Of a stretch of DNA of 64,000 nucleotides, positions 16,428 to 37,007 are shown piece by piece (the stretch's first letter is position 1; the number at the start of each line of letters is the position of its first letter). Origin of the DNA: a phage; NCBI GenBank assembly GCA_020619395.1, contig GCA_020619395.1_4860.1; one strand, 5' to 3'. Under the pieces are notes generated by a model. It saw only the letters and a program-made list of their open reading frames with translations, did no database searches and was not told the DNA's origin. The translations under genes were made by a program, and so were the position numbers.

Positions 16428-16429
16428 TG

Positions 16430-18703: not shown

Positions 18704-20881
18704 TTACGATAACGGTATCGTTGGCCGCACCCACGGTTTAGGGGCAGATTTGGTATACGGATTACATTCCATCATTTTACCGAGATACGCATCGTAATAC
18801 ACGAAGCGATCGACATAGAACCTCTCCACCGGTGTACTACTGGTAGCCGATTTCACCCGGTTGCGTTCCACAGCGAGGCCAATCACCCCGGTAGGCGCGG
18901 GTTTTAGGGTGAACATTACCGCACGGTTGTAACGCCAAGTGTCGTGCACAATATCAAACTCCGATACACTGTGTGCCATGATACCAAACAATGTGGTGGC
19001 TGGTAAGTTGGCTACAGCATCGCCGTATGGTGTTCCCACCAAACCGCCGGGTATGTTTTGCTTTTTGAACAGCGTACCTGAAATAATCGTACCTAAGAAC
19101 TCCACAACTACAGGTTTGGTTGGGTCGGTGACTTTATCTATCCCATCCGCACTGGCCAATCGGTTGGCATCTAAATCTGCGAGGTAGTCGAGGAACTCTT
19201 GGTACTCGTCGGTGACATTCGGTTTCACCGTTCCGACGGATACCCAGTTGACGATACTTTTATTCCCACCGACGGCTTCGCCTGCCATCCCAGGGCGAGT
19301 CCATGACATCCCGTCTTCACGACCGTAGACATAGACCGGCGAGCCGGTAGCCGGGGTGTTCCATTGCTCGAACGCTGTATATCGTCCCGGCTGGCCCCAA
19401 TCGCCACCAGGACCGCCATAGTAGCGACTCTGGTAGCCGGTAAATTGTGCGACGACTAACTGGGTAGCACCGCCTTTGTCACGGGACCCAGCTAAGCCGT
19501 TACGGTTATTGGTGCCGCTGGGTACCGCCGCGCCTGGCCCGAGAGGCGCACCACCAGCTCCACCGATCTTGGTGGTGCTAAACGCATAGTAGTCGCCCCC
19601 ACCCCCACCTCCGGCGATGGTGCCGTAGTTTTCGATGGTGACTTTGCCGCGGAAGGCATCGGTAATGTGGATTGCGTCAGCTCCGTCTGCTGATGTGTTC
19701 GCAGGCAGAGAATAGACCATACCCGAACCACCACGACCAAGAATGGTTCCCCGGTTAACGAAGTTCCAAACCACCTCGCCAATTTGCGGCAATTCGTCGA
19801 TAACGAACGTCGGTTTCAGGTTGCTGTCGCGATAAACGAAAGCCCCCGCATCTACGGTCACGTTAACAAACAAACGCCCGCACGCCGCATGGTTGGTCAA
19901 CGTCGTGGCCCAGTAGCTGTCCGAAACTTGCGACGTAGTTGTGTAGTTCAGGTTAAGGGTTTGCTCGTTATCTTGATAGCGTGCCACATTCAACGTGGCA
20001 CTGCCCATGACTTTGTACGAACCCTCCACAGGTGCCAATTGCACTTGTCTTGGCCACTCGCCTGCCAGGTCCTCTACGGGAGCAATTTCGTTTACATCAA
20101 AAACACTCCGAATGCCGAGTGTCTCGATGGCCAGAGCATCATGCAGGCTACCGGTGAAATCATCCGGGACGTATGTGGTTTTGCCTGCATATGTCTCGAG
20201 TTTGTTACGTGAAAAGAACACATACTTCGTTCCAAACATCCCGCTCCCCGGTCTAGCGGTCAAAGCCACGACGCTGTTATACGCAGAGGTTTGGCCTATA
20301 TCCTCCGGGGACATCGGGGCGCTGACATCGACTTTATCAAGATCCACGATCCGTTTGGTTGCATTAGAGTAGAAGTTAATCCACTGCTGTTTATTCGCAG
20401 CCTTTAGCGTGAGAATGATGTTGGTAACAGTGTAGACGGTGTTGATATCCACGTCACCGTTTATCACATCTAGCGTTTGGCTGCCGTACCAGACAAGACT
20501 TGTCTGTTTCGCCTGGAACGTGATGCGCGCAGCATTGTTTGTCCAAGTGATAGGCAGGTCTTCAAAGTCGTCGGTTAAAAAGGTAATCCCCAGTAAAGTG
20601 TCTAAATGCGGCAACAGTTCGTGAATGGATGCACAAGTGGGAATGGCATCCAACTTAACCTTAGCGAAATAATCAGCAATATTTTGCTTCGTGACTTGGG
20701 CCGTAATTTGACCGTAATTTGAATACCCCGGACCCCCTGTCAGTGTGACGTCTAGGGTTTTTTCGTCACGATGCGCCACGGACACCAGGCGTACGTTAGC
20801 GGGGTCTACTGCTTTGGCGACCGCGTTTTTACGGTTGAGCGACCGAATCACGGTCGCCACTAAATCGGGAGTGTAGGACAT
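18704..20881 (-). CDS. Fibre-module family protein with Gly-rich region (725 aa), candidate receptor-binding protein
   Basis: N-terminal family module (RKNAVAKAVDPANV..YGQITAQV); AGGGGGGDYY..GGAGGAPLGPG Gly-rich block; C-terminal NPYTKSAPKPWVRP shared with 20896-22215. Confidence 0.65.
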   Translation of the reverse strand: MSYTPDLVATVIRSLNRKNAVAKAVDPANVRLVSVAHRDEKTLDVTLTGGPGYSNYGQITAQVTKQNIADYFAKVKLDAIPTCASIHELLPHLDTLLGITFLTDDFEDLPITWTNNAARITFQAKQTSLVWYGSQTLDVINGDVDINTVYTVTNIILTLKAANKQQWINFYSNATKRIVDLDKVDVSAPMSPEDIGQTSAYNSVVALTARPGSGMFGTKYVFFSRNKLETYAGKTTYVPDDFTGSLHDALAIETLGIRSVFDVNEIAPVEDLAGEWPRQVQLAPVEGSYKVMGSATLNVARYQDNEQTLNLNYTTTSQVSDSYWATTLTNHAACGRLFVNVTVDAGAFVYRDSNLKPTFVIDELPQIGEVVWNFVNRGTILGRGGSGMVYSLPANTSADGADAIHITDAFRGKVTIENYGTIAGGGGGGDYYAFSTTKIGGAGGAPLGPGAAVPSGTNNRNGLAGSRDKGGATQLVVAQFTGYQSRYYGGPGGDWGQPGRYTAFEQWNTPATGSPVYVYGREDGMSWTRPGMAGEAVGGNKSIVNWVSVGTVKPNVTDEYQEFLDYLADLDANRLASADGIDKVTDPTKPVVVEFLGTIISGTLFKKQNIPGGLVGTPYGDAVANLPATTLFGIMAHSVSEFDIVHDTWRYNRAVMFTLKPAPTGVIGLAVERNRVKSATSSTPVERFYVDRFVYYDAYLGKMMECNPYTKSAPKPWVRPTIPLS

Positions 20882-20895
20882 GGTGACACCTTAGT

Positions 20896-22215
20896 CTATA
20901 GCGGTGGATACCAAGGGACCGGGGCGGTTTTGCTATATGGACTGTAGACCATATAGCCGCCTTTGCTTGGGTCGTAATAGATGAAATAGTTACAGTAATT
21001 CGAGTAAATGCTCGTCATTTGTTTGGATTGGTATCCGTTACGGTATAGTCCCTGGTAAGTAATAGCTGATGTCGTGGTGGTGTAAGCAGTGTGGTACAGT
21101 ACCCGACGCCGGTTAGCAATACTTTCTTGGAACATTTCTTCGGTCGGAAACGCGTGTTGCATCAGCCGTCGAATACTCCCGGTACAGTATCGAGTGCCAT
21201 ACGGGGAACCCGTTAAATCATCCGCAGTTTCAGGCGATTCTGCCCGAGTCAACACGTACTCGTTTTGATACAACGTGACGCTCATCGAATTTGGGCTGGT
21301 TTCCCGGAAACTCATGTAACGCGCATAACGTTCGACGTCCTCTTCCTGCGCCAAATAGGCCACGTTATTTTTCGGACCAAAGTGCAAGAAGAACGGACGG
21401 CGGAGATTACCCATATCCTCAGGTGGCGTCAACTTCACGCAGTAATTGTACTCCCCACGCATATCAGGGTCTAAGCCTGGGTTGTTATTGCGTGTAGCGA
21501 CATACCCATAGAGGTCATACGGGTTATCAGTAGCAGCATTACCGATAGTGAACGGGATGCCCGACCATGCCGACAGCGCCGCGATGAACTGGGTCATGTA
21601 CGAGTTACTGTTTAGTCGCAGCGGGGTACCCATCGGGATATTGATTATCTGTTGGGTGTACATGCTCCAGTCGAGTCGATAGACCGTGCTGTAAACATCC
21701 ATGGGTTCCCAAGCTCCGGTTTCGGTGGTGTGGTACAAGTCGGCAAAGCTGGGCTCTTCACGAATAAAGCTAATAGGAATGTGACCCGTGAATGCGGGGT
21801 TATCCGATTTAATCGCCACCGTCCGATCGCCCGTTGCCACAGTGATCATTGCAAACTGGCTGTCAGGATACGTTAAATCGTCAGCAGTAAGCACCAGCCC
21901 ACAAGCTGCGGAAATCCGGTCGATGATGTCGCGGTAGGACGTCGCCCGATAAGGTACTTTAACCGGTACGCTGACGCCTTTAAAATACTGCGAAAGGTTT
22001 AAGCGGTCGTAGTAGATGTCCATCTTACCGCTGTAACCGCCACCCTGTAATCCGTTTACCACTATACGGCTGTTGCGGCCATCGCGCAAGGCATTGGTTA
22101 AAGGACCTTGTAATAACGCCACGTTGGTTGCGTTGAGTGGTTTCTTGAGCTGCGGGTTATCACGATTAATCTGATCCCAAACCAGCTGCATGACAGGTTT
22201 GTTATAGTTGATCAT
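20896..22215 (-). CDS. Fibre-module family protein (439 aa)
   Basis: N-terminus MINYNKPVMQLVWDQINRDNPQL..RNSRIVVNG..IYYDRLNLSQYF; C-terminal SPYSKTAPVPWYPPL. Confidence 0.65.
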   Translation of the reverse strand: MINYNKPVMQLVWDQINRDNPQLKKPLNATNVALLQGPLTNALRDGRNSRIVVNGLQGGGYSGKMDIYYDRLNLSQYFKGVSVPVKVPYRATSYRDIIDRISAACGLVLTADDLTYPDSQFAMITVATGDRTVAIKSDNPAFTGHIPISFIREEPSFADLYHTTETGAWEPMDVYSTVYRLDWSMYTQQIINIPMGTPLRLNSNSYMTQFIAALSAWSGIPFTIGNAATDNPYDLYGYVATRNNNPGLDPDMRGEYNYCVKLTPPEDMGNLRRPFFLHFGPKNNVAYLAQEEDVERYARYMSFRETSPNSMSVTLYQNEYVLTRAESPETADDLTGSPYGTRYCTGSIRRLMQHAFPTEEMFQESIANRRRVLYHTAYTTTTSAITYQGLYRNGYQSKQMTSIYSNYCNYFIYYDPSKGGYMVYSPYSKTAPVPWYPPL

Positions 22216-22225
22216 TGCAACGTCC

Positions 22226-22262
22226 TAAAAAAAGAAAATAGGCCCTTCAGGGCCTATTTTTA
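22226..22262. terminator. Bidirectional terminator
   Basis: TAGGCCC-TTCA-GGGCCTA hairpin flanked by A-run and TTTTT. Confidence 0.6.
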
Positions 22263-22289
22263 GCTGTTATGGTGAAGTACGCTATCCCT

Positions 22290-22382
22290 TTAACTCCAGC
22301 TGATTCGACCTGCGTGTTGGGGATTATCCCGCTGAATGAGCCGACACAACAGCTCAAGTGCAGTGGATGAGTAAAACCCCAT
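22290..22382 (-). pseudogene. 30-codon remnant of a C-type fibre-module gene
   Basis: Translates to MGFYSSTALELLCRLIQRDNPQHAGRISWS*, matching the N-termini of the C genes (MGLYSAPELELLCQQVVRDNPELAGRIS..). AGGAG RBS retained; stop after codon 30. Confidence 0.6.
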
Positions 22383-22393
22383 ATTAGCTCCTG

Positions 22394-23296
22394 TTAGCTA
22401 AGAACCAGTTCGATAACGTGGACTACCGACGCGCTATTGGTCGAAGAGGTGTACGATGGTGTGTCTGGTGAGTTGCTGCGATAGTACCAGGGGGTGGCGT
22501 TGTCATAACCGTTGGCAAACAATGTTGCGCTTGAATCGGTTGGACTACCGCCGGAGCGCGCCGGTAAGTCGCCAAAACGTCTTACGACGCCCGCGTAGCG
22601 GAACAAGCTTGCGAACGTGTTGTGCCACTCGCCATCTTGAAAATAACCACCGCTGCTTAGGTAGGTGCTGTGCCCATAACTGTAGTCTCCGAGTCGAGGC
22701 AAACGTACCACATACTCGTAACCGTCTTTATTAAATGTCCGACGCTGGTTAGTGGTAGCGACGCCCCGTGGCGGGAAACCGTAGTCATCTGTTCCCCAGG
22801 CCAGACCTTGCTGGTATTGTTCGTTCCACGTCGTCCCTAAACGGGTCACCGTGTCAGGAATGAACAGAATGCGTCCTTTGAAAACGAATTTATGGAACAA
22901 TGTTGGAGCTTGGTTCCAGGCATTAAAGCCAATTAAACCATTCAGCTCGGCATGGTTAAGAATAAATTCTTCGTTTGTCAGTGTGCCAAAGTAGCCACGA
23001 TGCCAATCGCCACGAATAAGTTCCTGTGGGCCGGGCCCTGTCATTGGAAAGTCGCCCTGTACAATCGGCAGCCCCATAACCTTTTCAGTGCCCTTTACCG
23101 CCACGATGCGATATTGATACGTTTTATACGCCTCGGTGGTCGTGTCCTCGTACGTCGTTGTGTTACCTGGTAGTGTTACAATAGGTTCCCCCGGTGCTAC
23201 TGGGTTAACACTTTGTCTGGGGTTGTCGTAACGATAGATTTCAATGGAATCTAAAGTCTGACCTGGCTGTTGTTTCCAGTTTAAGATAATCGACAT
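22394..23296 (-). CDS. Fibre-module paralog type A, triad 3 (300 aa)
   Basis: FN3-like N-terminus (TTYEDTTTEAYKTYQYRIVAV) and central GPGPQELIRGDWHRGYFG..ELF..HKFVFKGRILF domain. Confidence 0.7.
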   Translation of the reverse strand: MSIILNWKQQPGQTLDSIEIYRYDNPRQSVNPVAPGEPIVTLPGNTTTYEDTTTEAYKTYQYRIVAVKGTEKVMGLPIVQGDFPMTGPGPQELIRGDWHRGYFGTLTNEEFILNHAELNGLIGFNAWNQAPTLFHKFVFKGRILFIPDTVTRLGTTWNEQYQQGLAWGTDDYGFPPRGVATTNQRRTFNKDGYEYVVRLPRLGDYSYGHSTYLSSGGYFQDGEWHNTFASLFRYAGVVRRFGDLPARSGGSPTDSSATLFANGYDNATPWYYRSNSPDTPSYTSSTNSASVVHVIELVLS

Positions 23297-23299
23297 GTT

Positions 23300-24298
23300 T
23301 TACTCCACTAACTCGATAACGAATGCGTACAAACCGACCTTCTCAGCACTGTCAATTAACGTAACTTGGGAGAGGTTACGTTTCGACGTATTGGTTATGC
23401 TTGAATCGATAGGCGCAGACCCGCGAACCAGAACTAATCCCGATTCAGGATCACGTTCTTGGCACAAGAAACCTTTGCCTTGGTAAGCGCTACCGCTCCC
23501 ATAAATGGACGCTGGACTAATATTAGTCCAGTTAGGGAGCATTTGTTTGTTAGGGATACAATCTCCGAACGGATAAACAAAATCGTTATATTCGCAGCGA
23601 CCATATTCCAAGTCATCATGGTCTGCGTTTCGCAACGATTCATCCAATGTCATTACTGTCGGTTCGTCCCCGTCGGTTAAACCGCGCAGCAATCGCATCC
23701 GATAGGTGTCGCCTTGCCATTCAAACAACCCACTCTGGTCAACACCTGCCAAATCCCCACGTCCGTTATCAGGACCAAATCCATCAACACCGTACACAAG
23801 CCCCGCGTTATAAATGTCATTCCACGAGTAAAGTGTAGAGTTAAATCGTCCGCCGCTGTTCATCATGTAGTAAACTTTACCATGTCGATAAAACTTGTTC
23901 ATGATTAGCGTGCCCGTGCCCGATATCCCTGTTAATGCACGAAAGCCTGCAGGCAACGCGTCATAGGTCATCTGTTCTTCGAACGGCAACTGCCCCAGAA
24001 ACGCCAAGTCGTCAGTATCGGAATAGTTAATCTGGTCGACGCCACCCACACCACGACGGTTTTTAATGACAATGGATTTTTGTGGACTACCTACGGTACG
24101 GCCGTTAACAGTTACTGTTAAAAGATACCAGTAACGGGTGTTAAGAATAACGGTTTCGTCCGTCCATTCCGTTTCGCCATTACTTAAAGTTGCAATAGGG
24201 GCTGGTAATGCGGCTGTATTTATTTTAGCCGTGCCCCGATAAATGTTAACAATTGAACCTGCCGGATTTTCATTTTTCCAGCGTAGTGTGAATGCCAT
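23300..24298 (-). CDS. Fibre-module paralog type B, triad 3 (332 aa)
   Basis: MAFTLRWKNENPAGSIVNIYRG.. N-terminus; AAGGAG RBS; 3-nt gap to A gene. Confidence 0.7.
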   Translation of the reverse strand: MAFTLRWKNENPAGSIVNIYRGTAKINTAALPAPIATLSNGETEWTDETVILNTRYWYLLTVTVNGRTVGSPQKSIVIKNRRGVGGVDQINYSDTDDLAFLGQLPFEEQMTYDALPAGFRALTGISGTGTLIMNKFYRHGKVYYMMNSGGRFNSTLYSWNDIYNAGLVYGVDGFGPDNGRGDLAGVDQSGLFEWQGDTYRMRLLRGLTDGDEPTVMTLDESLRNADHDDLEYGRCEYNDFVYPFGDCIPNKQMLPNWTNISPASIYGSGSAYQGKGFLCQERDPESGLVLVRGSAPIDSSITNTSKRNLSQVTLIDSAEKVGLYAFVIELVE

Positions 24299-24308
24299 CT
24301 GTTACTCC

Positions 24309-25751
24309 TTAGAAGCCGTTCAACTCACCGTTCGCGGTTGCTAAATCTGTTTTAAGTGGAGGTTCTGCCTGAGTAGGCGGTAGTGGACGCGGTGCGTCGA
24401 CGTGTGGTTCAAGTACAACCATCGGCCTAACTGTACCTACGCTGTTCGACACTGTCGATAACGGCAGCGCAGTATCGACGTTTGGTTCACCCACCACAAT
24501 CGGGCTGATAGGTTCTTCCACCTGTTCCGCAGTTGTTGCTAGAGGTCTCGGCGCATCTGTTGTCGCAACCTCGACTGCAAGAGGGCGAATGCTATCAGGT
24601 TGTGGTGATGGTACATTAGGAATAACCCTAACGCGCCACACAACATCCCCTTCCACATCAGCTAAAGATAAGACGATGTCGTCCTTATTGATTTCCTCTA
24701 AAACAGGCCACCAGTAAGTGGTATCTGTAAGGGTTACCCATTCAACTGAGCCACCGCGCATATTGCAACGTTGTACTTTAACAGGGTTACCCCCGGTTAA
24801 CAGTTGTTGCGTGAAGAAGACGGTGGTTCTGGTTAACGTGGTGTCATTTGCCCAGTCGCCGCCCGTAGAACCGTCACCGAGTTGTGAAATAAGCCACAAC
24901 GGTGTGGCCTTTGATAAATCAGGGCTAACCGGAACGGAGACGCGGTAATAATGCGTCTTGTTATTCTCAGTTTTCGTGACAATCAAAGCCTGGTCAACAG
25001 GTTCGATACCGTCTGGATACGGACCAGTGTCACCTGTACCGAAAATGGCACCCGCTTGATAAAGGGCCGTCCAGGTTGCTGTTAACGTTCCGGTAGTCGG
25101 TAGATAAACAATCTTACCATCCTTGAAAAATTTCAACCATTCGAAAGTCATTTTCGTTGGGGCAACATCAGGACGAATTAGGTTGTTTAGTTCAGCAAAG
25201 GTAAATAACTCTTGCTGAGAAACGTGGCCGAAGTATCCGTTTGTGCTGTCCCCTGCCAACAAATATTTATTGCCTGGCCCAGAATCTGGATAGTAGCCCA
25301 CGGCTTCATTCAAATAATCGACCGGGATATAGCCGCGATAGCATACGCTATTATACGCGGTTAAATTAATACGTGTTGGCGTTGCCAGCGATTTGATAGG
25401 CGCGTCTACCGACTGTACACTGCTATCAGATAACCAAACACCGTATAAATCGCGTAGAGCTGGGAGAAGATCCCGCACGGTCTTGGCCGTTTGTGGTACG
25501 TAGACGCGCGGAGCTATTTTAAATAGATCTGATAATGTTAAACGGTCGTAATAAACCGTGCACTCCCCAGAGAAACCTTTACCGGGTTTACCTACCAACG
25601 TAATTACCGTGTTACGACCATTCTTAGTGGTCTCGGCAGGAATACCCCTCACCCCAATCGAATCAGCGCTGATTCTTCCTGCGAGTTCAGGGTTATCCCT
25701 TACGACTTGTTGGCAGAGCAATTCCAGTTCGGGTGCGCTATACAATCCCAT
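24309..25751 (-). CDS. Fibre-module paralog type C, triad 3 (480 aa)
   Basis: N-terminal family module (VRDNPELAG..GRNTVITLVGKPGKGF..VYYDRLTLSDLF), central GPG..GYFG..ELF domain, DAPRPL repeats, C-terminal TANGELNGF. Confidence 0.7.
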   Translation of the reverse strand: MGLYSAPELELLCQQVVRDNPELAGRISADSIGVRGIPAETTKNGRNTVITLVGKPGKGFSGECTVYYDRLTLSDLFKIAPRVYVPQTAKTVRDLLPALRDLYGVWLSDSSVQSVDAPIKSLATPTRINLTAYNSVCYRGYIPVDYLNEAVGYYPDSGPGNKYLLAGDSTNGYFGHVSQQELFTFAELNNLIRPDVAPTKMTFEWLKFFKDGKIVYLPTTGTLTATWTALYQAGAIFGTGDTGPYPDGIEPVDQALIVTKTENNKTHYYRVSVPVSPDLSKATPLWLISQLGDGSTGGDWANDTTLTRTTVFFTQQLLTGGNPVKVQRCNMRGGSVEWVTLTDTTYWWPVLEEINKDDIVLSLADVEGDVVWRVRVIPNVPSPQPDSIRPLAVEVATTDAPRPLATTAEQVEEPISPIVVGEPNVDTALPLSTVSNSVGTVRPMVVLEPHVDAPRPLPPTQAEPPLKTDLATANGELNGF

Positions 25752-25762
25752 GAAGTCTCCTG

Positions 25763-26662
25763 TTAAGGCAGAACGAGTTCAAGTACCGCAATGGAGCGTA
25801 TTGTAGTGGTACCGTAGTTACTCCATGCCGGCGACTCAGGGTAAGGTGGACGGTTGTACCACTGACTGGACGTGTTATTCATAGCCGCAAAGAATGCAGA
25901 TTGTTGGGCAGTAACCGAATCGATTGAACCGACCGGAAGGTCGTCAAAGCGCGGAAACTGCCCACTGTAGTTGTACAGGCGCGCGAAGGTGTTAAACCAC
26001 TCACCGTCGAGATACAACTCAGTGTTACCGCTTCCAACGTAAGACGTCCAGTATTTGTAGTCGAACAAATACGGCAAGCGCACCACGTATTCGTAACCGT
26101 TCTTCGCCACCGTGCGGCGTTGGTTACGTGCAGTAGCCCAGCCCGGTACATATCCATTGCCATCCTGGCCGTACATCATCCCCTGGTTATAAATGAACTG
26201 CGGGCTAGCGTTTATTATCGAGTTATCGGACATAAACAGAATACGGTTTTTGTAAATGAATTTATGCCAGGCACCAACGGCGGAACTGAACATATTCACC
26301 ACGAGGCCGTTCAGTTCCGTGTTAGTGAATAACTCTGCTGGCGTTACTGTTCCAAAGTATCCAGCGTGCCAGTCGCCGTATAACAGTTTCTGGGGGCCAG
26401 GCCCGGTGTCTAAAAAGAACCCTTGGGCGGTAGGGGTGTTGAAGACACGCTCACCGTCTTTAACCGCAGCTATCCAATAACGGTAAGTGGTGTTGTTTTC
26501 CACAGCGTTGTCTTCGTACGATGTAGCGTCACCCGGAAGGGTTGCCAGAGGCGTTCCCGGTGCATTAACATCAATTGTGGCGTTGCCCGGCGTCTTGCGA
26601 TAGATTTCGATGTTATCGAGCGCCTGTGGCTTCCGTTGTGCAAAGTGTAATGTAATAGGCAT
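25763..26662 (-). CDS. Fibre-module paralog type A, triad 2 (299 aa)
   Basis: Start set to ATG 26662 (MPITLHF..), 2 nt after upstream stop; tracked 26698 start overlaps. About 60% identity to the other A copies in the central domain. Confidence 0.7.
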   Translation of the reverse strand: MPITLHFAQRKPQALDNIEIYRKTPGNATIDVNAPGTPLATLPGDATSYEDNAVENNTTYRYWIAAVKDGERVFNTPTAQGFFLDTGPGPQKLLYGDWHAGYFGTVTPAELFTNTELNGLVVNMFSSAVGAWHKFIYKNRILFMSDNSIINASPQFIYNQGMMYGQDGNGYVPGWATARNQRRTVAKNGYEYVVRLPYLFDYKYWTSYVGSGNTELYLDGEWFNTFARLYNYSGQFPRFDDLPVGSIDSVTAQQSAFFAAMNNTSSQWYNRPPYPESPAWSNYGTTTIRSIAVLELVLP

Positions 26663-26664
26663 GA

Positions 26665-27654
26665 TTAATCCTCGATAAGCTCGATTACTGGAATCCAAAT
26701 ACCGCCCACGGTCGCACCAGGGACATGTTGTATACGCTGGAGGTTATCCACGGTATCAGTGGAATCCGCCGCCGCCAATCCGCGCGTCAGCCCCAACTTA
26801 CGTTCTGGGTCAAACTCCTGACAATGCGCCCCACGGCCTGCCACCAGCGATCCATTTCCGAATATGCTGGAGTTCGACCACTTTATCAGGGACATCACTT
26901 TTTTCTTTTCTGGGAACCAGCTACTTATCCCATAGATGAGTCGGTTGTATTCGCTATCGGCAGTATACGGTGACGCGTCATGGAGTTTACCGTCCCACTG
27001 TGCATCGAGTGTCATGACCGGGCTTTCACTGTCGAGTGTTAAACCGCGCAGCAGGCGCATCCGATAGCGGTCACCCAACCACGTAAACTCCCCAGCCTGG
27101 TCAACGTCAGGTAAATCGCCATGACCGCCTTCCGGACCAGGTCCCGCCACACCGTACAGCAAACCCGCGTTATAAATCGCATCACGGCTATACAGCGTGT
27201 TGCCGTTCACACGAAGACCACTAAACAGATACAGAATTTTACCGTCTAGCTGGAACTTCATCAAGCCCGGCTTAACAGTTGGGTCGTATCCAGAAAGGGC
27301 CACAAACCCTGGCGGATAATCACCCGCGCTAGGTAATTCACCGTACGCCACGTACCCGTAATACGCAAAGCGGTCATCACCGTACTGTGGAGCCACGATG
27401 CCGATACCGCGACGGTTCTGAATTAGAATTGATTTCTGCGGACTGAACAGTGTCCGACTTCCCACTGTCACGGTGGTCATGTAGTAATACGTTGTCCCCA
27501 GTATCGCTGTTCGGTCAGTATACTCAGTTTCCCCGTTAGTGAACGTTGCCAGGGGTTCAGGTAATGCCGTACGCACCAGAGGTTTGGTGTCGCGGTACAG
27601 CTTCACGGTCGAAGCCCCAGGGTTATTGTTCGTCCAACGAATTGTAAAAGCCAT
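26665..27654 (-). CDS. Fibre-module paralog type B, triad 2 (329 aa)
   Basis: MAFTIRWTNNNPGASTVKLYRD.. homologous to the other B copies. Confidence 0.7.
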   Translation of the reverse strand: MAFTIRWTNNNPGASTVKLYRDTKPLVRTALPEPLATFTNGETEYTDRTAILGTTYYYMTTVTVGSRTLFSPQKSILIQNRRGIGIVAPQYGDDRFAYYGYVAYGELPSAGDYPPGFVALSGYDPTVKPGLMKFQLDGKILYLFSGLRVNGNTLYSRDAIYNAGLLYGVAGPGPEGGHGDLPDVDQAGEFTWLGDRYRMRLLRGLTLDSESPVMTLDAQWDGKLHDASPYTADSEYNRLIYGISSWFPEKKKVMSLIKWSNSSIFGNGSLVAGRGAHCQEFDPERKLGLTRGLAAADSTDTVDNLQRIQHVPGATVGGIWIPVIELIED

Positions 27655-27666
27655 TGTCGTTACCTC

Positions 27667-29163
27667 TTATTGGAATCCATCCAACTCACCGTTAGTATCG
27701 CCCAGAGTAATTTTTGAAGGTTGGGCGATTTGGTCAGTCGTGAGAATAATCGGTCTAATCTTAACGCTAGCCATGCCTGTTACCGCGACGGAATATGCAC
27801 GTTCATCATTGTCCGTCGTGGCAAGCAGAGGACGTGGTGAGTCTGATGACGCTTCCCGCAGCCAGGCAGGGGTGGCAGTTTCGGTGTTGTCGGTGTTGAA
27901 AACTAACGGACGTGGATTCGCTGCGGCGGAGGTTTCCGTAATAGGCACCACACGAAGCGATTCATTTTGGTCGATGTCCGTCAGAGTAACCACGGACGGT
28001 GCCCATGTTAGCTCTGCACCTTCGTCAATCAACGGCACAGGTTCATTGGCAACATCAAACATCTCCAGGATTGGCCAAAAGCCAGAAGAGGTGTAGATGT
28101 AGGTGTTTGAACGATAGCTCGCGCTGATAGACTGGTAATACGCTTGGTCGGCACCGAACTGGTGTCGTAACCACACGTAATCCAGGAAGTTAGCATCAGT
28201 CGTGCTAAGAGTTCCCCACTCCCCATATACGTTCACCGACCCCAATTTGCTGGTCAGTGACAGGATAGAGGTGATTGACGGCGGTTTACTCCAATCAGGC
28301 GCGGCGGCGTTCTCGGTGTAATACGGGATAGACATTCTGAAATAATGCGTTCCTTCATCATCCCGTTTTACCATGTATTTCAACTGTTCAACATCGACAG
28401 GTGTGTAAGTCGACTTCGGGCGAGGTCCTGCGTCTCCGGAATCAAATATTGCACCCTTGTTGTACAGGTCTGCCCAGGTAACGTTGCAAATCGCACGGGT
28501 CGGAACAAACACTACCGCCCCATTCAGAAAGAATTTGAGCCACTTGATAGCGTAGCGGTTAGGCCAGTTGGTGCCGTTATAAAGGGCATACACCATTTCA
28601 TCAGATGTGAATAACTCTTCCGCGCTTACCAGCCCAAAGAATCCGTATAACTCATTACCAGCCATTAATCCTTTTGGCCCAGGACCCGACTTCGGATACA
28701 TCGCAATCGGTTCGTAAACATAGGTCATCTTGCATGACCCGGTATAGCACAAGGAGTTAGCGTGCGCCGTCAGAGTTACAGTTTCCGGCGTAGCGTATTT
28801 CATTAATGCAACGTTTGGACTGGTGATATCACTCGCGGTTAAGTTCAACCCGTTCAATTCATTGAACGCCGGTAACGCTTCCGCATGGGTTTGTGCGCTA
28901 CGTGGAATACTCACCATATTCGGGCCAGACTTAAATAGACTGGCCAGATTCAACCGGTCGTAATATACCGTTATTTCCCCAGCAAATCCTTTACCGGGTT
29001 TTCCTACCAACGTAATCTGAGTGTTTCGTCCGTTAACGTTTTTCGCAACAGGAACACCCCTGACCCCAATGGAGTCAGGGGTGATTTTTCCTGCTAAACC
29101 GGGATTGTCACGCACAATTTGTTGGCAGAGCAGTTCCATTGAAGGTTCTGTATACAACCCCAT
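27667..29163 (-). CDS. Fibre-module paralog type C, triad 2 (498 aa)
   Basis: N-terminus about 75% identical to the triad-3 C copy; NPRPL/SPRPL repeats; C-terminal TNGELDGFQ. Confidence 0.7.
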   Translation of the reverse strand: MGLYTEPSMELLCQQIVRDNPGLAGKITPDSIGVRGVPVAKNVNGRNTQITLVGKPGKGFAGEITVYYDRLNLASLFKSGPNMVSIPRSAQTHAEALPAFNELNGLNLTASDITSPNVALMKYATPETVTLTAHANSLCYTGSCKMTYVYEPIAMYPKSGPGPKGLMAGNELYGFFGLVSAEELFTSDEMVYALYNGTNWPNRYAIKWLKFFLNGAVVFVPTRAICNVTWADLYNKGAIFDSGDAGPRPKSTYTPVDVEQLKYMVKRDDEGTHYFRMSIPYYTENAAAPDWSKPPSITSILSLTSKLGSVNVYGEWGTLSTTDANFLDYVWLRHQFGADQAYYQSISASYRSNTYIYTSSGFWPILEMFDVANEPVPLIDEGAELTWAPSVVTLTDIDQNESLRVVPITETSAAANPRPLVFNTDNTETATPAWLREASSDSPRPLLATTDNDERAYSVAVTGMASVKIRPIILTTDQIAQPSKITLGDTNGELDGFQ

Positions 29164-29176
29164 GGTATTTACTCCA

Positions 29177-30100
29177 TTACGGTAAGACTAATTCAAAAGC
29201 AAAGAATATCGTGGCCGAGTTCCCGACACCTGCGGTGTTACTAATCCCCATAGGCACGGTGCCATACGCATAAGCGAATATGTTGTTGCTCCACAAAGGA
29301 GCTAATACAGCGGCACCTGACTCATTCGGCTGCGCAGTCGCGCCTTGTCTTTCAAGTGAGTCAATCGCACCAAGACCGAGGGCTGCGTACTGTGCACCGA
29401 CAGGATACAAACGGCCCATTGTGTTTCGCCATTCACCGTTGTTGTAATCCTGTCCTGAGAGTGCCGCGTCGTACGGGACTGCGTAAGGTAATCGGATACG
29501 GTACGTACGACCATCCTTCGTGACCTTACAATCTTGTTTAGTCGCCGTGGCTCCCTGCGGAACAATACTTCCGACATCATCGGTCCCGTACATCATGCCG
29601 TACTGATACGCCATTTGTACCGAGTTGCTTTTCGAATGCATCGTCGCTGGGAAGAAGACAATTCGCCCACGGAAAATAAACTTGTGCCATTCCTGAGGGT
29701 CGTAAGTAAACATGTTTCCCTGCTGCGCGGTTAACATGAGTTTTAACTCGGCAGTATTAAAGAACTCGGTATTAGATACCGTACCGAAATAGCCTGACGC
29801 CCAATCGCCACGCAAAATAGTTTGTGGCCCCGGTCCAGTGTCCGGATAGAACCCTTGCGTAATCGGATTGCCGATAAGTCGTTCACTATCTTTCACAGCA
29901 GCTACCCAGTAACGATAAGTTGTATTCTTCGTCAGGGTATCGATATTATCTACGAACTCTACCGCGCTACCGGATAAGGTGGCGTGGGGTGTACCTGGGT
30001 TGTAAACGTCGATTGTTGCGTTCCATCCTTCCTTGCGGTAGATTTCAATCGCGGTAAGACCTTTGCTGGCTTGGGACGGCCAGCTTAACCGTATAGTCAT
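29177..30100 (-). CDS. Fibre-module paralog type A, triad 1 (307 aa)
   Basis: GPGPQTILRGDWASGYFG..EFF..HKFIFRGRIVFF central domain; AAGGGG RBS. Confidence 0.7.
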   Translation of the reverse strand: MTIRLSWPSQASKGLTAIEIYRKEGWNATIDVYNPGTPHATLSGSAVEFVDNIDTLTKNTTYRYWVAAVKDSERLIGNPITQGFYPDTGPGPQTILRGDWASGYFGTVSNTEFFNTAELKLMLTAQQGNMFTYDPQEWHKFIFRGRIVFFPATMHSKSNSVQMAYQYGMMYGTDDVGSIVPQGATATKQDCKVTKDGRTYRIRLPYAVPYDAALSGQDYNNGEWRNTMGRLYPVGAQYAALGLGAIDSLERQGATAQPNESGAAVLAPLWSNNIFAYAYGTVPMGISNTAGVGNSATIFFAFELVLP

Positions 30101-30109
30101 GACTGCCCC

Positions 30110-31108
30110 TTACTCGACCAGTTCAAAGATAGGGTAGTAGCGCCCTTTCGTGGTGGGTGATAAATAGTTTATACGCTGAATCGTGGATACGGGTGTTCCA
30201 CCGGCATTGTTAAAAATACCACGATGGAGCACACGGTCTTCCGCGGTATCGTGTTCCATACAGAGAACACCACCGCCGAAATACTGTGCCAAGGTTCCCA
30301 AAGTACCTTGCCCCAGATAAGTATAACCGATTGTTGCCCAGTTAGCCCAACGCTGTTTCTTCGGCACCTCGTTAACCATCGTGTAAAGTAAATCGTTATA
30401 CTCACACGGGTTGGTTAGAGAAGCGATTTCATCATGGGTTTTCCCATTATAGTCAGCTACGAAAGGATACGCAGGAGGCTCGCTAGACATCGTCAGGCCG
30501 CGAGGAAGACGCATGATGTACGTATCCCCTTTGTGGACTATCTTAGCGTCTTGTGGAGTGGCCGGTAGCGTTCCATGGCCGTTCTCTGGACCAGCATCGC
30601 CCGTACCATAGACTAAACCAGCTTGATAGAGGGAAGCCCAGTCCACAGGCGTATTCGGGAACTGCGACGTGCTAGATAGCATGTAATAGATCTTCCCGTT
30701 TCGGGTAAATTTATACAACGCCACACGATCGGTTAGTAGGTTAGGGAACATCGCCAAAAATGCAGGTGGCATTTGCGACGGAAGCCACTGTTCGTCGTAA
30801 GGAACCGCACCCATAAACCCTAAACGGTCGTCACCGTTTAGAATAGTCATTGGACCGATCCCACGCTTTATCTCAATGGTGTATTTCTGGCTAGACGATG
30901 CCACTGTTTTACCGTTGGCGGTTACCGTCAGAAGGTAATAATAGGTTGCGCCTGGTGTGGCGGTGGTATCACGCCATTCTGTCTCGCCATTTGAGAGCGT
31001 TGCAATCGGTTCAGGCAAAGCGCTTGGTGTGATATCTTTAACATCACGGTAGATTTTTACTACCGTAGGGATTACGTTTGGATTTTTCCAACGCAAAGTA
31101 AAAGACAT
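30110..31108 (-). CDS. Fibre-module paralog type B, triad 1 (332 aa)
   Basis: MSFTLRWKNPNVIPTVVKIYRD.. homologous to the other B copies. Confidence 0.7.
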   Translation of the reverse strand: MSFTLRWKNPNVIPTVVKIYRDVKDITPSALPEPIATLSNGETEWRDTTATPGATYYYLLTVTANGKTVASSSQKYTIEIKRGIGPMTILNGDDRLGFMGAVPYDEQWLPSQMPPAFLAMFPNLLTDRVALYKFTRNGKIYYMLSSTSQFPNTPVDWASLYQAGLVYGTGDAGPENGHGTLPATPQDAKIVHKGDTYIMRLPRGLTMSSEPPAYPFVADYNGKTHDEIASLTNPCEYNDLLYTMVNEVPKKQRWANWATIGYTYLGQGTLGTLAQYFGGGVLCMEHDTAEDRVLHRGIFNNAGGTPVSTIQRINYLSPTTKGRYYPIFELVE

Positions 31109-31119
31109 AGATGATACCT

Positions 31120-32532
31120 CTACTTAAAGCCGTCCAGTTCACCGTTAAGAGACGTTAACGTTGTCTTGTCAGGGGGCGTATACATTTCAGCGGTAGCCGC
31201 AATAGGTTGGAAGTCGACTGTCTTCGGCAGCATTAAAGCAGGCGGATGCAGTGCGAAACTGTTTTCTGAAGTAACAACTACCGGTTCGAAATCGGTAGTA
31301 TCCGGATTACCGAGCACTAACGGCTTGAGACTAAATGTGTTTTCTGCGGACACGCTGCACGGTTGGAGACTGTAATCTGCCGTACCGTGGATATCTTCTA
31401 AACCCAAGGTAACTGTGGACTTATCCACCAACTCCAGCACCGGGAACCAGTAGTAGTTGCCCGCACTCGATGATTTTTCTAAGTTTGTCCAACTTGCTCC
31501 AGACAACGTCGCCATGCGATGATTGGCGACGTTGGTCTTCAGTGTATCTTTCAATAAACAGAACAGCGTCCAGTAACTGTTAATCGGTTTGTCCCACGTT
31601 CCATTATACAGAAAGTTGAACATCTCAAACTCACTACCTGCTAACTCAGCGGCAGTTGGGGTGCCGCTGACGTATGGGTCTTTCCCGGCACTAGGTAGAC
31701 GAACGCGGAAGTAAAACCTTTTGTTGTCTGCGCCTGTAAAGCTAATGATGCGTCCCTGGTTAACGGGCGTCGCCGCAGGGTATTTACCATTATCGTCTGT
31801 TCCGTAAACGAGTCCGTTTGTATATAACGTATTCCAGGAGATGGAGCTAGCGACAGGACTGATCGGAAGGTAAATAACCCTACCCTGGTAAAAGAACTTG
31901 TACCAACCTTCGGCACCAGAATGTACCGGTGGTAACGCACCGGCCGATATAGTGGCATTAAGAAGTTGAGAGTGTGTAAACAACTCTGCAGTTCTGGTTG
32001 TTCCGAAATAACCCGCGATAGTGTTACCTTGCAGCAACGTTTTAGGGCCAGGTCCAGAATCGGGGTAAATTGCACCACTCGGGACGGTATAACGTATCGT
32101 TAAGCTGCCTGTAAACGCAGGGCAATTGCCTGAGATATTTAATTTCAACGTCTGCGGCGAAACGCTCGGTTTAGGTAAACTTGCGTCAGGTGACTGCAAA
32201 TCAGAAGCAACTAATGTAAGCCCCAATGCGTCGTTTATTGCAGGTAGCGCGTCTCGTACCGTTAAGACTGTATCTTTGATAGCCACAGTCGGCACAAAAT
32301 TAAATAAAGTGGCCAGGTTAATCCGGTCGTAGTACACGGTAACATTACCTTGTACACCTGTCCCTGGATACCCGGTGAAAACAGCTTTGGTGTTACGTTG
32401 GTTTAACGTAACTGAAGTTGGGCCACTGGTTAAAGCAGCGATAGCCGGCGTCAGCTTAACAACTAAATCAGGGTTATCCCGATTGACTTGGTCGTATACA
32501 AGCAGTGCCGACTCCTTCGAGTAAAATAGCAT
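31120..32532 (-). CDS. Fibre-module paralog type C, triad 1 (470 aa)
   Basis: VNRDNPDL..RNTKAVFTGYPGTG..VYYDRINLATLF N-terminal module; C-terminal LNGELDGFK. Confidence 0.7.
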   Translation of the reverse strand: MLFYSKESALLVYDQVNRDNPDLVVKLTPAIAALTSGPTSVTLNQRNTKAVFTGYPGTGVQGNVTVYYDRINLATLFNFVPTVAIKDTVLTVRDALPAINDALGLTLVASDLQSPDASLPKPSVSPQTLKLNISGNCPAFTGSLTIRYTVPSGAIYPDSGPGPKTLLQGNTIAGYFGTTRTAELFTHSQLLNATISAGALPPVHSGAEGWYKFFYQGRVIYLPISPVASSISWNTLYTNGLVYGTDDNGKYPAATPVNQGRIISFTGADNKRFYFRVRLPSAGKDPYVSGTPTAAELAGSEFEMFNFLYNGTWDKPINSYWTLFCLLKDTLKTNVANHRMATLSGASWTNLEKSSSAGNYYWFPVLELVDKSTVTLGLEDIHGTADYSLQPCSVSAENTFSLKPLVLGNPDTTDFEPVVVTSENSFALHPPALMLPKTVDFQPIAATAEMYTPPDKTTLTSLNGELDGFK

Positions 32533-32545: not shown

Positions 32546-32576
32546 CGCCAAAAGAGGGGGGCTCCGAAGAGCCCCT
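32546..32576 (-). terminator. Hairpin terminator between short-paralog genes and triad 1
   Basis: Minus-strand GGGGCTC-TTCG-GAGCCCC followed by CCTCTTTTGG. Confidence 0.45.
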
Positions 32577-32580: not shown

Positions 32581-33408
32581 TTAGCTGTTATAGTGGTAGT
32601 ACGCCACGCCTTTCACGCCTTCCTCATCGATACCCGTTTGGATAACCACGCGGTCGTACGATTTGTTAGCGAACTGAGCGGTGGATGTCGGCACATCCTG
32701 AACGGTGTTACTGTTCAGTGGCCCCGCGTAGTTCGGAATACCCAGGTCATCCAACACCTTACGCAAACCAGCCCACTGCGGTAGGCCAGAAGCATCTACT
32801 GTCAGTAGGTTTTTATACGCGGTAAAGTCAATACCGTACGTCAACAAATCAATACACTTCTTACCGAGAGACGGTGAAATAGGCTCTTGAATCGCATTCA
32901 AGACATCTGATTTCACCGAAGTGTCTAGTACCGGTAAACCACGGTTATAACGCAACGTCGCAGAACCGATATAAGCCGGAGATGTCGATAGCGCTGCAAT
33001 GGTCTGTGTATTGGTGTAATTTGGGGTATTGGCACCAAACAGTGAGTAGTTTTGGATATCGATTGCGGAGAAGTTTACTCCGTAAGTATCCAAGAGCACC
33101 GAAAAGGCTGAGTGGAGGTTGGGCGCGTCAAACGTGACGAACTGCGCCTGGACAGAAGGACCCCACGGCAATAACCGCGCTAAGTTCACACGGTCGTAGT
33201 AAACGGTGATTGCGTCTCGAAATCCGGAACCCTGAATACCGCGCAAGCGTGCCGACGTATTGCGGTTGTTGGAAGCTGCATTAACGGGAACCTGCGTCAC
33301 TTTCTCCACGTAGCAGTTTGCCGGCGACGCTTTAATAGGTAGGTTTGGGTTATCCCGGTTAATGAGGTCAAAGACCAACTCGTTTGACGGCTTAGCATAG
33401 TTGATCAT
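32581..33408 (-). CDS. Fibre-module family short paralog (275 aa)
   Basis: ATG 33408 (tracked TTG 33411). N-terminal module INRDNPNL..RNTSARLRGIQGSGF..VYYDRVNLARLL; C-terminal YYHYNS. Confidence 0.65.
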   Translation of the reverse strand: MINYAKPSNELVFDLINRDNPNLPIKASPANCYVEKVTQVPVNAASNNRNTSARLRGIQGSGFRDAITVYYDRVNLARLLPWGPSVQAQFVTFDAPNLHSAFSVLLDTYGVNFSAIDIQNYSLFGANTPNYTNTQTIAALSTSPAYIGSATLRYNRGLPVLDTSVKSDVLNAIQEPISPSLGKKCIDLLTYGIDFTAYKNLLTVDASGLPQWAGLRKVLDDLGIPNYAGPLNSNTVQDVPTSTAQFANKSYDRVVIQTGIDEEGVKGVAYYHYNS

Positions 33409-33411
33409 CAA

Positions 33412-34299
33412 TTATACCTCGCTTGGATCGTCCAGATCGTTGAACTGGAGATACAACGTTCCGACGATGGTGGTACAGGTAACAGGCAGTTTCAACACCA
33501 GCGCATACTTGTACTTCGCGTTTGTCGGCATTGCAACAGGGTCATTCAGACCAACGCTGATAACCTCCGCGCCCGCCAAACCGTAGGAAGCGGAGGTGGT
33601 CGCTACCCATGCAGTACCCGTGATATCTTTCAGCAGGTTAACCATATCCGTTAACGGCTGTCCGGACAGAATACCCGGCACGTATGCCAGCAACTCATCA
33701 CGGTATTTGGTGAAGTTGTACGGGTAGGAATAAACCTCTGCAATGACCGCAGTAACGGTTTCGGAACCCATCTGACCGTTCGGGTATTTCAGACCGGTCA
33801 GGACGTTAGTGGTGACCGCAGAGACTAACGACTCATCGCCTTTCACGACTTTAAATGTCGCCTGTCCAACCCAACCGATAGACTCAGGATGTGCAACAAC
33901 ACGCACAGTTCCTTCGGTCTTATCACCGTTCCATTCGATATCTGCGTCCTGCAGGTCAGCTTCTTCCAGAACAAAACCGTAACGTTGGTTCAGTCCAGGA
34001 ATGGCCGCATACAAGGTTTCGTTGGATGGGCCGATCGCCAACGTGTCACCAATCAGCACTAACAAGTCTTCGATTTTCATGCGGTTGTAGAAGACATTTT
34101 TCTTACCCGACCAGGTAGAGCCCGTTACCCCATCTGCCGTAATTTTAATTTGCGTGTTACGGTTAGTCAGCGTTTCCTTCTCCGTACCACGGATGTCCTT
34201 TGGCGAGGACCAGATGATGTCAGTCATCTTAACAGCAAGCGAGTTCTGTGCGTTCACTGCTGCCAACAGGACGTCTTTAGAAGGTTGATAAATAGCCAT
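33412..34299 (-). CDS. Fibre-module family short paralog (295 aa)
   Basis: N-terminal module (NRNTQIKITADGVTG..FYNRMKIEDLL); C-terminus LYLQFNDLDDPSEV. Confidence 0.65.
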   Translation of the reverse strand: MAIYQPSKDVLLAAVNAQNSLAVKMTDIIWSSPKDIRGTEKETLTNRNTQIKITADGVTGSTWSGKKNVFYNRMKIEDLLVLIGDTLAIGPSNETLYAAIPGLNQRYGFVLEEADLQDADIEWNGDKTEGTVRVVAHPESIGWVGQATFKVVKGDESLVSAVTTNVLTGLKYPNGQMGSETVTAVIAEVYSYPYNFTKYRDELLAYVPGILSGQPLTDMVNLLKDITGTAWVATTSASYGLAGAEVISVGLNDPVAMPTNAKYKYALVLKLPVTCTTIVGTLYLQFNDLDDPSEV

Positions 34300-34309
34300 T
34301 CGCTAATTC

Positions 34310-35149
34310 CTAGTTGTTGTAGTGCAACATACACTCGCCGATTACTTTCGGGTCGTTCTGAATGCCGGTAATCAGCAATACGTTATCGTACGCTTTATTG
34401 GCGGTCGCCAACTCACTCGTTTTGTAGCGGGTAATTGTGCAGTTCGTCGGATCAAACGACGGTACCCCACGTGCGACCAATGTGGCCATCAGATTGGACG
34501 TGTAACCCAAATCAAAGTTACTTCCTACGTCCATTCGCCCGTTCTTAAACGAGGCCATAACCTGCACTTCATCAGTAAAGTCTTCCCCGTACGTCAAGAA
34601 GCCCATGTATTTCTTACCAGTGCTTGCTGCTGCAGGGTGGTTCAAAGCCGACAAGATGTCGTTTACCACGAGGTCTTCGAGACTATTCTTACCCCGGATA
34701 GACATAAAGGTGATGCTGCCAGTGTATTGGATACAGCTAGCGTTAATGCGCATCGTGTTGTTTACGTTCAGATAAACGTATTGTTCTGGGATATCGTCTG
34801 CAACCAGGTTTAATCCATAACGACCGTTCAGGTTCTGCGCAAACGCAGTACGTTTCGACTCCACGTTCAACCAACCGTAGGCATTCGGTGCAGTTACCTG
34901 AGGTGTCATGTTCTTAAATAAGTCGTTCAGCGACAAGCGCTTATAACGGAACGTCTGAGGACCGATATAGCCACGACCTTGACGACCACGAATGATAATC
35001 TCAGTATTGGCACCGCTTGCTGTCGGTGTGATTGCTTTCGGCGTACCGATGATAGCATTGTCTAAACCCATCGGTAGAACAGCATCCGGGTTTTCGGCAT
35101 TAATCGCATCGTACAGATATTGTCGCTGAGACAGACTATATAAAGCCAT
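34310..35149 (-). CDS. Fibre-module family short paralog (279 aa)
   Basis: ATG 35149 (MALYSLSQ..) with GAGGAGG 5 nt upstream; tracked 35167 start would translate the RBS. C-terminal MLHYNN. Confidence 0.65.
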   Translation of the reverse strand: MALYSLSQRQYLYDAINAENPDAVLPMGLDNAIIGTPKAITPTASGANTEIIIRGRQGRGYIGPQTFRYKRLSLNDLFKNMTPQVTAPNAYGWLNVESKRTAFAQNLNGRYGLNLVADDIPEQYVYLNVNNTMRINASCIQYTGSITFMSIRGKNSLEDLVVNDILSALNHPAAASTGKKYMGFLTYGEDFTDEVQVMASFKNGRMDVGSNFDLGYTSNLMATLVARGVPSFDPTNCTITRYKTSELATANKAYDNVLLITGIQNDPKVIGECMLHYNN

Positions 35150-35167
35150 AATAGCCTCCTCGGCCAA

Positions 35168-35206
35168 AAAAGAAAGGAGTAGCCAGGAGGAGGATTTCCT
35201 CCTCCC
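35168..35206 (-). terminator. Hairpin terminator-like element
   Basis: GGAGGAGG-ATTT-CCTCCTCC stem-loop; U-run begins 9 nt downstream on minus strand. Confidence 0.35.
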
Positions 35207-35218
35207 AGCGAGGCCTAA

Positions 35219-36130: not shown

Positions 36131-36151
36131 TCTTACTTCCTTTACTCAGGA

Positions 36152-36997: not shown

Positions 36998-37007
36998 GTC
37001 AAAATCC

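Follow-up and report, generated by a model that had tools for sequence, protein, structure and literature searches.

We analysed a stretch of 64,000 nucleotides (nt) from the phage contig GCA_020619395.1_4860.1 (NCBI GenBank assembly GCA_020619395.1), referred to here as the window. It represents an SPN3US-like Salmonella jumbo phage (Seoulvirus, Chimalliviridae), for which several deposited genomes are 98–99% identical. On the minus strand, between positions 22394 and 32532, lie nine genes in which three types, named C, B and A, follow one another three times as (C-B-A)x3, the gaps between successive genes being 11, 9, 13, 12, 2, 11, 10 and 3 nt from C1 to A3 (Table 1). A sequence-only reading of the window had described this array, and the nine genes, their sizes, their constant order and their spacing of 2–13 nt are borne out by the open reading frames (ORFs). 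The array extends further than that reading had placed it, with a gene stump directly downstream (22290-22382) and genes with the Pfam domain DUF7941 on both sides (18704-22215 and 32581-38658). The whole block shares 98.1% DNA identity with SPN3US, its genes map one-to-one onto gp145 (C1) to gp153 (A3), and the same array was found in more than 17 independent genomes. The nine therefore correspond to part of the SPN3US 'paralog family B' (gps 83, 138-154, 160/161 and 237; Thomas et al. 2016, Ali et al. 2017, Viruses 2023;15:723), and as a gene family they have been known since 2016-2017.

The start of A2 was set at the ATG at 26662 (MPITLHF...) and not at the upstream TTG at 26698, because published N-terminal peptide data for SPN3US (mass spectrometry (MS) Table S6) show a methionine aminopeptidase-processed terminus with P1′=Pro; RefSeq agrees. 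The mechanical ORF from the TTG would encode 311 amino acids (aa) and overlap B2 by 34 nt.

Table 1. Triad genes and surrounding features in the window, in the order of minus-strand transcription
Feature	Coordinates	Strand	Length (aa)	Description
gp144 to gp138	32581-38658	-	265-303	Seven full-length DUF7941 genes
Upstream hairpin	32558-32575	-		Terminator-like GC hairpin between gp144 and C1, at the upstream edge of the triad block
C1	31120-32532	-	470	gp145 orthologue; triad type alpha
B1	30110-31108	-	332	gp146 orthologue; C-terminus ELVE
A1	29177-30100	-	307	gp147 orthologue; C-terminus ELVLP
C2	27667-29163	-	498	gp148 orthologue; triad type beta-prime, a Seoulvirus-specific extra copy
Hairpin in 5′ part of C2	29055-29083	coding strand		Perfect 13-bp-stem hairpin, CACCCCTGACTCC-ATT-GGGGTCAGGGGTG
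B2	26665-27654	-	329	gp149 orthologue
A2	25763-26662	-	299	gp150 orthologue
C3	24309-25751	-	480	gp151 orthologue; triad type beta
B3	23300-24298	-	332	gp152 orthologue
A3	22394-23296	-	300	gp153 orthologue
Fourth-unit stump	22290-22382	-		Ribosome-binding site, ATG and 30 codons reading MGFYSSTALELLCRLIQRDNPQHAGRISWS up to a stop; 5′ end of a delta-type C gene, unannotated
Downstream hairpin	22225/22235-22260	-		Intrinsic-terminator-like hairpin, 11-bp stem and T-run; closes the triad transcription unit
gp154	20896-22215	-		DUF7941 N-part and an unrelated C-domain
gp155	18704-20881	-	725	DUF7941 N-domain and Pfam GP38 tail-fibre-adhesin domain
gp157	17078-17719			DUF1353; annotated tail assembly chaperone
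gp160	15285-15812	-	175	Highly abundant; DUF7941 N-domain and a tail ending TNGELDGFV
gp161	14532-15203			DUF4376
Radical-SAM genes	11756-14027			Two adjacent genes

Within each type, the copies are clearly paralogous (BLASTP, E=1e-53 to 1e-97). Full-length protein identity between copies is 37–46% for A, 38–47% for B and 30–38% for C. The sequence-only reading had given 60–75% identity at the module ends with a divergent centre, which does not hold: in windows of 30 residues, identity peaks at 50–63% in the N-terminal third and falls to 15–40% in the C-terminal half, and the conserved termini are confined to motifs of four to seven residues (ELVLP in A, ELVE in B and NGELDGF in C). When triads were compared at the DNA level, only patches of 66–79% similarity with a period of about 3.36–3.41 kb were left. 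Such eroded similarity shows that the repeat is old and not an assembly artefact. Assembly error, which the earlier reading had allowed for as a source of the repeat, and recent amplification are both ruled out by the 30–47% protein identity, the near-vanished DNA similarity and the recurrence in independent genomes.

Comparison of orthologues showed the same gradient, with 53–80% identity in the N-terminal module, 45–67% in the first half of the domain shared by A, B and C (see below) and 27–56% in its second half. A conserved anchor followed by a variable distal half is the pattern of phage binding proteins. Compared to SPN3US, the ratios of non-synonymous to synonymous substitution rates (dN/dS) of the nine genes are 0.08–0.40, similar to those of flanking genes and based on small substitution counts; all nine genes are under purifying selection. 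Gene-wide positive selection is disfavoured by these values, few as the substitutions are. Diversification by a diversity-generating retroelement was also rejected, as no template repeat was found and the region 18000-39000 holds no long near-identical repeats, the best being the 66–79% patches between paralogues.

The three gene types differ in their N-terminal modules. All C proteins match Pfam DUF7941 (PF25613; C1 110, C2 105 and C3 79 bits, with a gathering score of 27), and the match covers only positions 1–153 of the 276-position profile, corresponding to its N-domain. No A or B protein matched DUF7941 in the Pfam search, even at E<=1. C1 consists of the DUF7941 N-domain (residues 1–150), a putative lectin-like domain (~150–375) and a disordered tail (378–470) ending NGELDGFK; in the predicted structure residues 1–377 are modelled with confidence and 378–470 have a predicted local distance difference test score (pLDDT) below 50. 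A1 has a fibronectin type III (FN3) domain (1–~80) followed by the putative lectin-like domain, and B1 has an FN3-like N-domain followed by a diverged copy of it. The FN3-like N-termini that had been proposed for A and B are confirmed by a seven-strand beta-sandwich that can be superposed on FN3 domains.

The domain common to A, B and C, which had also been proposed from the window itself, is supported by profile-profile comparison: C 145–373 aligns with A 68–303 at E=1e-28, and hhalign of A against B gives E=2.3e-41 over the FN3 domain and the first half of the shared domain. A and B are linked to C solely via this domain. Its predicted structure suggests a C-type-lectin-like fold, and we refer to it as lectin-like in this putative sense. 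At the sequence level, the Pfam search gave no match of the triad proteins to Lectin_C, FGE-sulfatase or DUF1566, and single-sequence and profile searches of the PDB with these proteins returned nothing significant. The 'glycosyl hydrolase' label carried by A and B genes in MT679221 and OQ383623 (Proteus phage 7 and MET_P1_082_240) has no Pfam or fold support.

The C tails end in a motif, K-x-x-L-x-x-x-NGEL(D/N)GF, that is common only to C1, C2, C3 and gp160. In all six frames of the window NGEL(D/N)GF occurs four times, each time in one of these four proteins and 0–1 residue from the stop. Furthermore, the C tails align with the tail of gp160 at z=7–13 and no other DUF7941 protein matches them; a relation to the linkers of the full-length DUF7941 proteins gp138-144 was rejected, since the similarity is not significant (z<3). 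The NGELDGF terminus is absent from gp126, gp127 and gp143 of phage phiKZ. We consider the longer C-terminal motif of the C proteins and gp160 a candidate docking peptide for filament assembly.

The number of triads varies from one to four among related phages, a comparison that the sequence-only reading had called for. CR5 has one triad, EarlPhillipIV, EC001, Lh1B and SPLA3 have two, the SPN3US group, JN03, phiEaH2, Caitlin and Phobos have three, and pEa_SNUABM_4 has four. Neighbour-joining trees, built for C, B and A from 22 proteins each, were congruent and separated the triads into four types; pEa_SNUABM_4 has all of them, in the order alpha, beta, gamma, delta. The window carries alpha, a Seoulvirus-specific duplicate of beta (beta-prime) and beta, whereas JN03 has alpha, beta-prime and delta. 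It follows from the trees that the genes of a triad are inherited together as one block, and the amplification is ancient, older than the divergence between Seoulvirus, Erskinevirus, Machinavirus and Derbicusvirus. Thus, of the earlier description of the cassette as 'amplified, diversifying', the amplification is supported by the copy numbers of one to four, but it is an old one and the dN/dS values do not point to ongoing diversification. The single triad of CR5 (14001-17474) is a mosaic with a delta-type C and gamma-type B and A, which suggests inter-triad recombination or, alternatively, weak tree placement.

A remnant of a fourth unit follows A3. The stump corresponds, at 94% identity, to the 5′ end of a delta-type C gene that is intact in JN03, and downstream of the stump, in another frame, we found a remnant of a DUF7941 C-terminus (GVKGIAYFTITAKNRP, up to a stop), followed by the strong terminator. 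Despite the stump and this remnant, the 178-nt gap after A3 (22216-22393) is unannotated in all records examined. SPLA5c has a longer stump of 91 codons, the end of which matches the C-terminus of a gp144-like protein.

In addition, near-identical relatives revealed four rearrangements that arose independently. In EC001/Lh1B the region 22286-25732 is deleted at an ATAGCG(C/T)AC microhomology, and SPLA3 has lost exactly one unit through an in-register crossover between the 5′ end of C3 and the stump. SPLA5c contains a B2/B3 chimera with a premature stop, A2 and C3 being gone, and in JN03 only about 500 nt of triad 3 are left. These rearrangements show how units disappear, through recombination of one paralogous gene with another. 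Two observations concern the records of close relatives. Proteus phage 7 is recorded with a 'Proteus' host though it is 98.8% identical to Salmonella phages. The records of SPFM1, SPFM5-10, 12, 14, 15 and 20 (LR5359xx) gave about 40 short matches with 25% coverage, 99% identity and fragmented proteins, and look like indel-ridden assemblies rather than biology.

Outside these phages, a word-indexed search with the shared domain found about 100 clusters, nearly all of them proteins of ~300 aa on contigs of jumbo-phage size and without Pfam annotation. An exhaustive profile search raised this to 1,821 representative clusters. Among metagenomic proteins there are single chains with 2, 3, 4, 6 or 8 tandem copies of the domain, and fusions to Laminin_G_3/ConA-like lectin, Gly_rich_2 and DUF285 domains, to nine Big_6 Ig-like domains and to a Kelch-like propeller. 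Many of these multi-copy or fused proteins start with M(F/Y/I)E(L/I)LL, which resembles the terminal ...LEL(V/M) strand of the shared domain.

Whether the triad products are part of the virion can be judged from published MS data, which concern the SPN3US orthologues and not the isolate in the window. All nine orthologues, gp145-153, were detected in purified SPN3US virions with 39–87% sequence coverage, in agreement with the earlier proposal that they are virion proteins. The tail-tube mutant 255(am107) yields tailless particles, in which the normalised peptide-spectrum match ratios of gp145-153 relative to the wild-type (WT) were 1.06–1.67 (MS Table S2), compared to 1.4–1.65 for core head proteins and at most 0.013 for the baseplate/fibre candidates gp167-170; the fibre proteins as a whole, gp167-171, are lost from such particles. 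A second tailless mutant, 64_112(am27), gave the identical assignment for gp145-153, and the SPN3US authors place such proteins 'in the head or neck'. None of the nine is processed by the prohead protease. In heads, gp145-153 gave 3.2–12.4 spectral counts per kDa, compared to 6.6 for the 12-copy portal, which implies copy numbers on the order of ten each, while the abundant short family member gp160 is present in more than 300 copies per virion. These data show that in SPN3US the nine products are low-copy, uncleaved virion components that stay with tailless heads. In SPN3US, the only phage measured, the triad proteins are not tail fibres or baseplate proteins. The receptor of SPN3US is the flagellum.

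The genes flanking the triads largely encode members of the same family. The seven proteins gp138-gp144, which include the abundant gp141 and gp143, have an N-domain of ~150 aa in common with the C proteins. In gp155 the GP38 domain (residues 373–553) contains glycine-rich motifs and scores 66 bits in Pfam (cutoff 25), and over its last ~110 residues gp155 is homologous to the C-terminal end of gp154. Despite its GP38 adhesin domain, gp155 was classed as a head protein by SPN3US proteomics (ratio 0.89). Relative to the triads, genes similar to gp154 and gp155 are upstream in Derbicusvirus phages but downstream in SPN3US, and they are absent from phiEaH2, Caitlin, pEa_SNUABM_4 and JN03; gp154 and gp155 appear to form a separately mobile two-gene unit. 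The two radical-SAM genes, gp161 and gp157 separate the DUF7941 block from the large baseplate/fibre genes gp167-170. In phiEaH2 an annotated exopolysaccharide (EPS) depolymerase gene is found directly upstream of the DUF7941 array (12836-14653), consistent with the region being a host-surface-interaction module.

DUF7941 itself has recently been connected to filaments. A preprint on phage Goslar (bioRxiv 10.64898/2026.04.21.720040, April 2026) describes the domain as chimallivirus-specific and presents AlphaFold models of head-to-tail polymers, in which a protomer uses its disordered linker to dock on the N-domain of the one that follows. Purified Goslar gp22 assembles into filaments, and some DUF7941 members carry carbohydrate-binding, glycosidase or leucine-rich repeat (LRR) domains. 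In phiKZ, gp126 and gp127 match Pfam DUF7941. The layout of a filament subunit, an N-terminal globular domain followed by a disordered linker, is also found in the C1 model. [quoted passage not shown] The SPN3US proteomics (head/neck) is thus in conflict with the phiKZ and Goslar cryo-EM (baseplate) on the anchor point. As far as the searchable literature shows, this conflict was previously unremarked, and the Goslar preprint does not cite SPN3US. For the triads, the word 'fibre' used in the sequence-only reading is therefore appropriate only in the sense of DUF7941 filaments; in the sense of a tail fibre or baseplate protein, it is contradicted by the tailless heads of SPN3US.

We tentatively propose, rating the chance as somewhat below even, that the triads are the lectin-bearing parts of external DUF7941 filaments that stay with the head or neck. 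If the Goslar AlphaFold models and the gp22 filaments can be transferred to SPN3US, DUF7941 proteins would polymerise head-to-tail, with the disordered linker of one subunit on the N-domain of the next. Each C protein might then act as a subunit or cap plugged into filaments made mainly of gp141, gp143 and gp160, on which it would display its lectin-like domain, and the cognate B and A proteins could join C to form a multi-lectin adhesive unit. Several divergent triads would give each virion several weak specificities for an initial contact, still reversible, with the flagellum or surface of the host. Because the triad proteins are retained with tailless, DNA-filled heads, the anchor is placed on the head or neck side and not on the tail. 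Head fibres make the first contact in other flagellotropic phages and SPN3US is flagellotropic as well, which we take as an analogy and not as evidence. The role in host recognition or at the virion surface that the sequence-only reading had suggested is plausible in view of the FN3 and lectin-like domains, the adhesin-type fusions and the DUF7941 N-domain.

Several points weigh against the proposal of head- or neck-attached filaments. A and B have no DUF7941 module by which to attach. In the 2026 phiKZ atlas the N-domain of gp127 is docked at the outer baseplate, and the Goslar authors propose a baseplate-anchored host-recognition 'fibre cloud', which they extend to all chimalliviruses. The tentative label that the SPN3US authors gave to abundant members of the family is 'Head ejection?'. 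The natural loss of one triad in EC001 and SPLA3 shows that individual triads are dispensable. Moreover, the fused relatives with two to eight domain copies do not imply a fixed three-part complex; an obligate C+B+A heterotrimer of three lectin-like domains is weakened by them, and we retained only the notion of a multi-domain adhesive unit.

A different anchor for the same filaments, the outer baseplate, has to be considered, and we regard it as rather unlikely. Here the filaments would radiate from the baseplate, the triad proteins would in function be fibres of the tail, which comes close to the sequence-only reading, and the head signal would come from self-assembled filaments that stick to tailless heads or co-band with them. 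This would fit the modelling of the phiKZ gp127 N-domain at the end of the gp139 band, where a gp126-gp127 dimer also fits unexplained density, as well as the formation of filaments by purified Goslar gp22 without a virion. It would also fit the proximity of the array to the baseplate/fibre genes gp167-170, tail-assembly-like genes and the endolysin gene, and the head/WT ratios of family B (0.89–1.67), which average slightly below those of core head proteins (1.4–1.65). However, two tailless mutants purified by step and buoyant-density CsCl gradients keep every family member at full level, while known tail proteins drop 20- to 200-fold, and protein-only filaments should not co-band with DNA-filled heads. 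In addition, the Goslar baseplate map shows no DUF7941 density, and the phiKZ placement rests on predicted models docked at ~4.4 Å.

Two further explanations accept the head location and dispense with adhesive filaments. That the triad products are internal proteins, packaged with the DNA and injected like the PF12699 proteins gp53 and gp54, seems quite improbable. They are found in the head fraction by MS, SPN3US heads contain more than 40 MDa of internal protein, and the 'Head ejection?' label was given to abundant members of family B; but domains of the FN3, lectin-like and GP38-adhesin types function as binding modules outside the cell, DUF7941 makes long filaments and is located on the outside in phiKZ, and prohead-protease processing, which most core and ejection proteins undergo, does not occur. 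The fusion of shared-domain relatives to ConA-like lectin, Ig-like and glycine-rich domains, partners typical of extracellular adhesins, likewise argues against an internal or ejected role. A passive decoration or cement function, as Hoc-like ornaments or vertex stabilisers with no part in host binding, we consider highly improbable. Head association and FN3/Ig-like domains, which are common among decoration proteins, would agree with it, and a low-resolution SPN3US map has unassigned Hoc-like density per hexamer and extra densities at the vertices. On the other hand, the 260 hexamer sites greatly outnumber copies on the order of ten, the search for relatives among the ten ordered minor capsid proteins of phiKZ found none, and for structural cement it would be strange that triads are present in some near-identical phages and not in others. 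Both the DUF7941 module, which forms filaments, and the disordered tail speak rather for flexible appendages.

The proposal of lectin-bearing filaments on the head or neck can be taken one step further, to an idea that we hold to be doubtful. SPN3US-like jumbo phages might possess a second, tail-independent adsorption organelle of head/neck DUF7941 filaments, equipped with interchangeable three-gene 'cartridges' (a C plug and two FN3-lectin partners) that unequal recombination adds, removes and reshuffles, giving each virion a combinatorial set of weak adhesins, for example for rotating flagella or surface glycans. If this were true, universal baseplate anchoring of DUF7941 fibres would be wrong, at least in the SPN3US lineage.

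The family accounts for more than 20 of the virion proteins of SPN3US, or roughly one quarter of its virion proteome. The present analysis resolves the 17 members gp138-154 into putative filament subunits, lectin-bearing plug-in subunits and FN3-lectin partners, and ties the family to the newly proposed DUF7941 host-recognition filaments. New are the triad organisation, the putative lectin-like fold, the candidate docking motif at the C terminus, the stump, the copy-number series and the head-versus-baseplate conflict. The natural series of one to four triads (CR5, EC001, SPLA3, SPN3US and pEa_SNUABM_4) may bear on host range or adsorption rate, which is relevant to phage-therapy and biocontrol candidates in this group.

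In the papers on paralog family B, gp138-154 were treated as one 17-member PSI-BLAST family with no function assigned. The C-B-A periodicity, the DUF7941 and FN3 N-terminal modules, the shared lectin-like domain, the triad orthogroups, the copy-number variation and the stump do not appear there. Like the proteins of the Goslar fibre cloud, the C proteins have a DUF7941 N-domain with a disordered segment after it; carbohydrate-binding domains follow the N-domain in some Goslar members, and a part in host recognition is proposed for both. In contrast to Goslar, the C proteins exchange DUF7941's C-terminal globular domain for the lectin-like domain and a gp160-type tail, they have the partners A and B which lack DUF7941, the three-gene cassette is present one to four times, and the SPN3US family is found with heads and not with tails. 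In phiKZ (gp126/gp127; PDB 9xqd; phiKZ structural atlas 2026), gp127 is a full DUF7941 protein without the lectin-like domain, present in six copies at the outer baseplate, and the DUF7941 family has two to three members compared to more than 20 in SPN3US.

The C-type-lectin-fold variable proteins of Bordetella phage (Mtd), Treponema (TvpA) and Thermus (TaqVP) are also among the closest known systems. The capsid fibres of the flagellotropic phages 7-7-1 and phiCbK are head-associated, flexible and low-copy and make the first flagellar contact, and SPN3US is flagellotropic too; 7-7-1 has one fibre per vertex whereas no fibres have been reported on SPN3US heads, and no relationship in sequence or fold is known. 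T4 Hoc and other Ig/FN3 head decoration proteins are likewise non-essential, associated with the head and equipped with FN3/Ig-like domains, and are believed to mediate weak adhesion. Hoc, which lacks a lectin-like domain, occupies each hexamer (155 copies), whereas the triad proteins are present in about ten copies and are tied to a filament-forming module.

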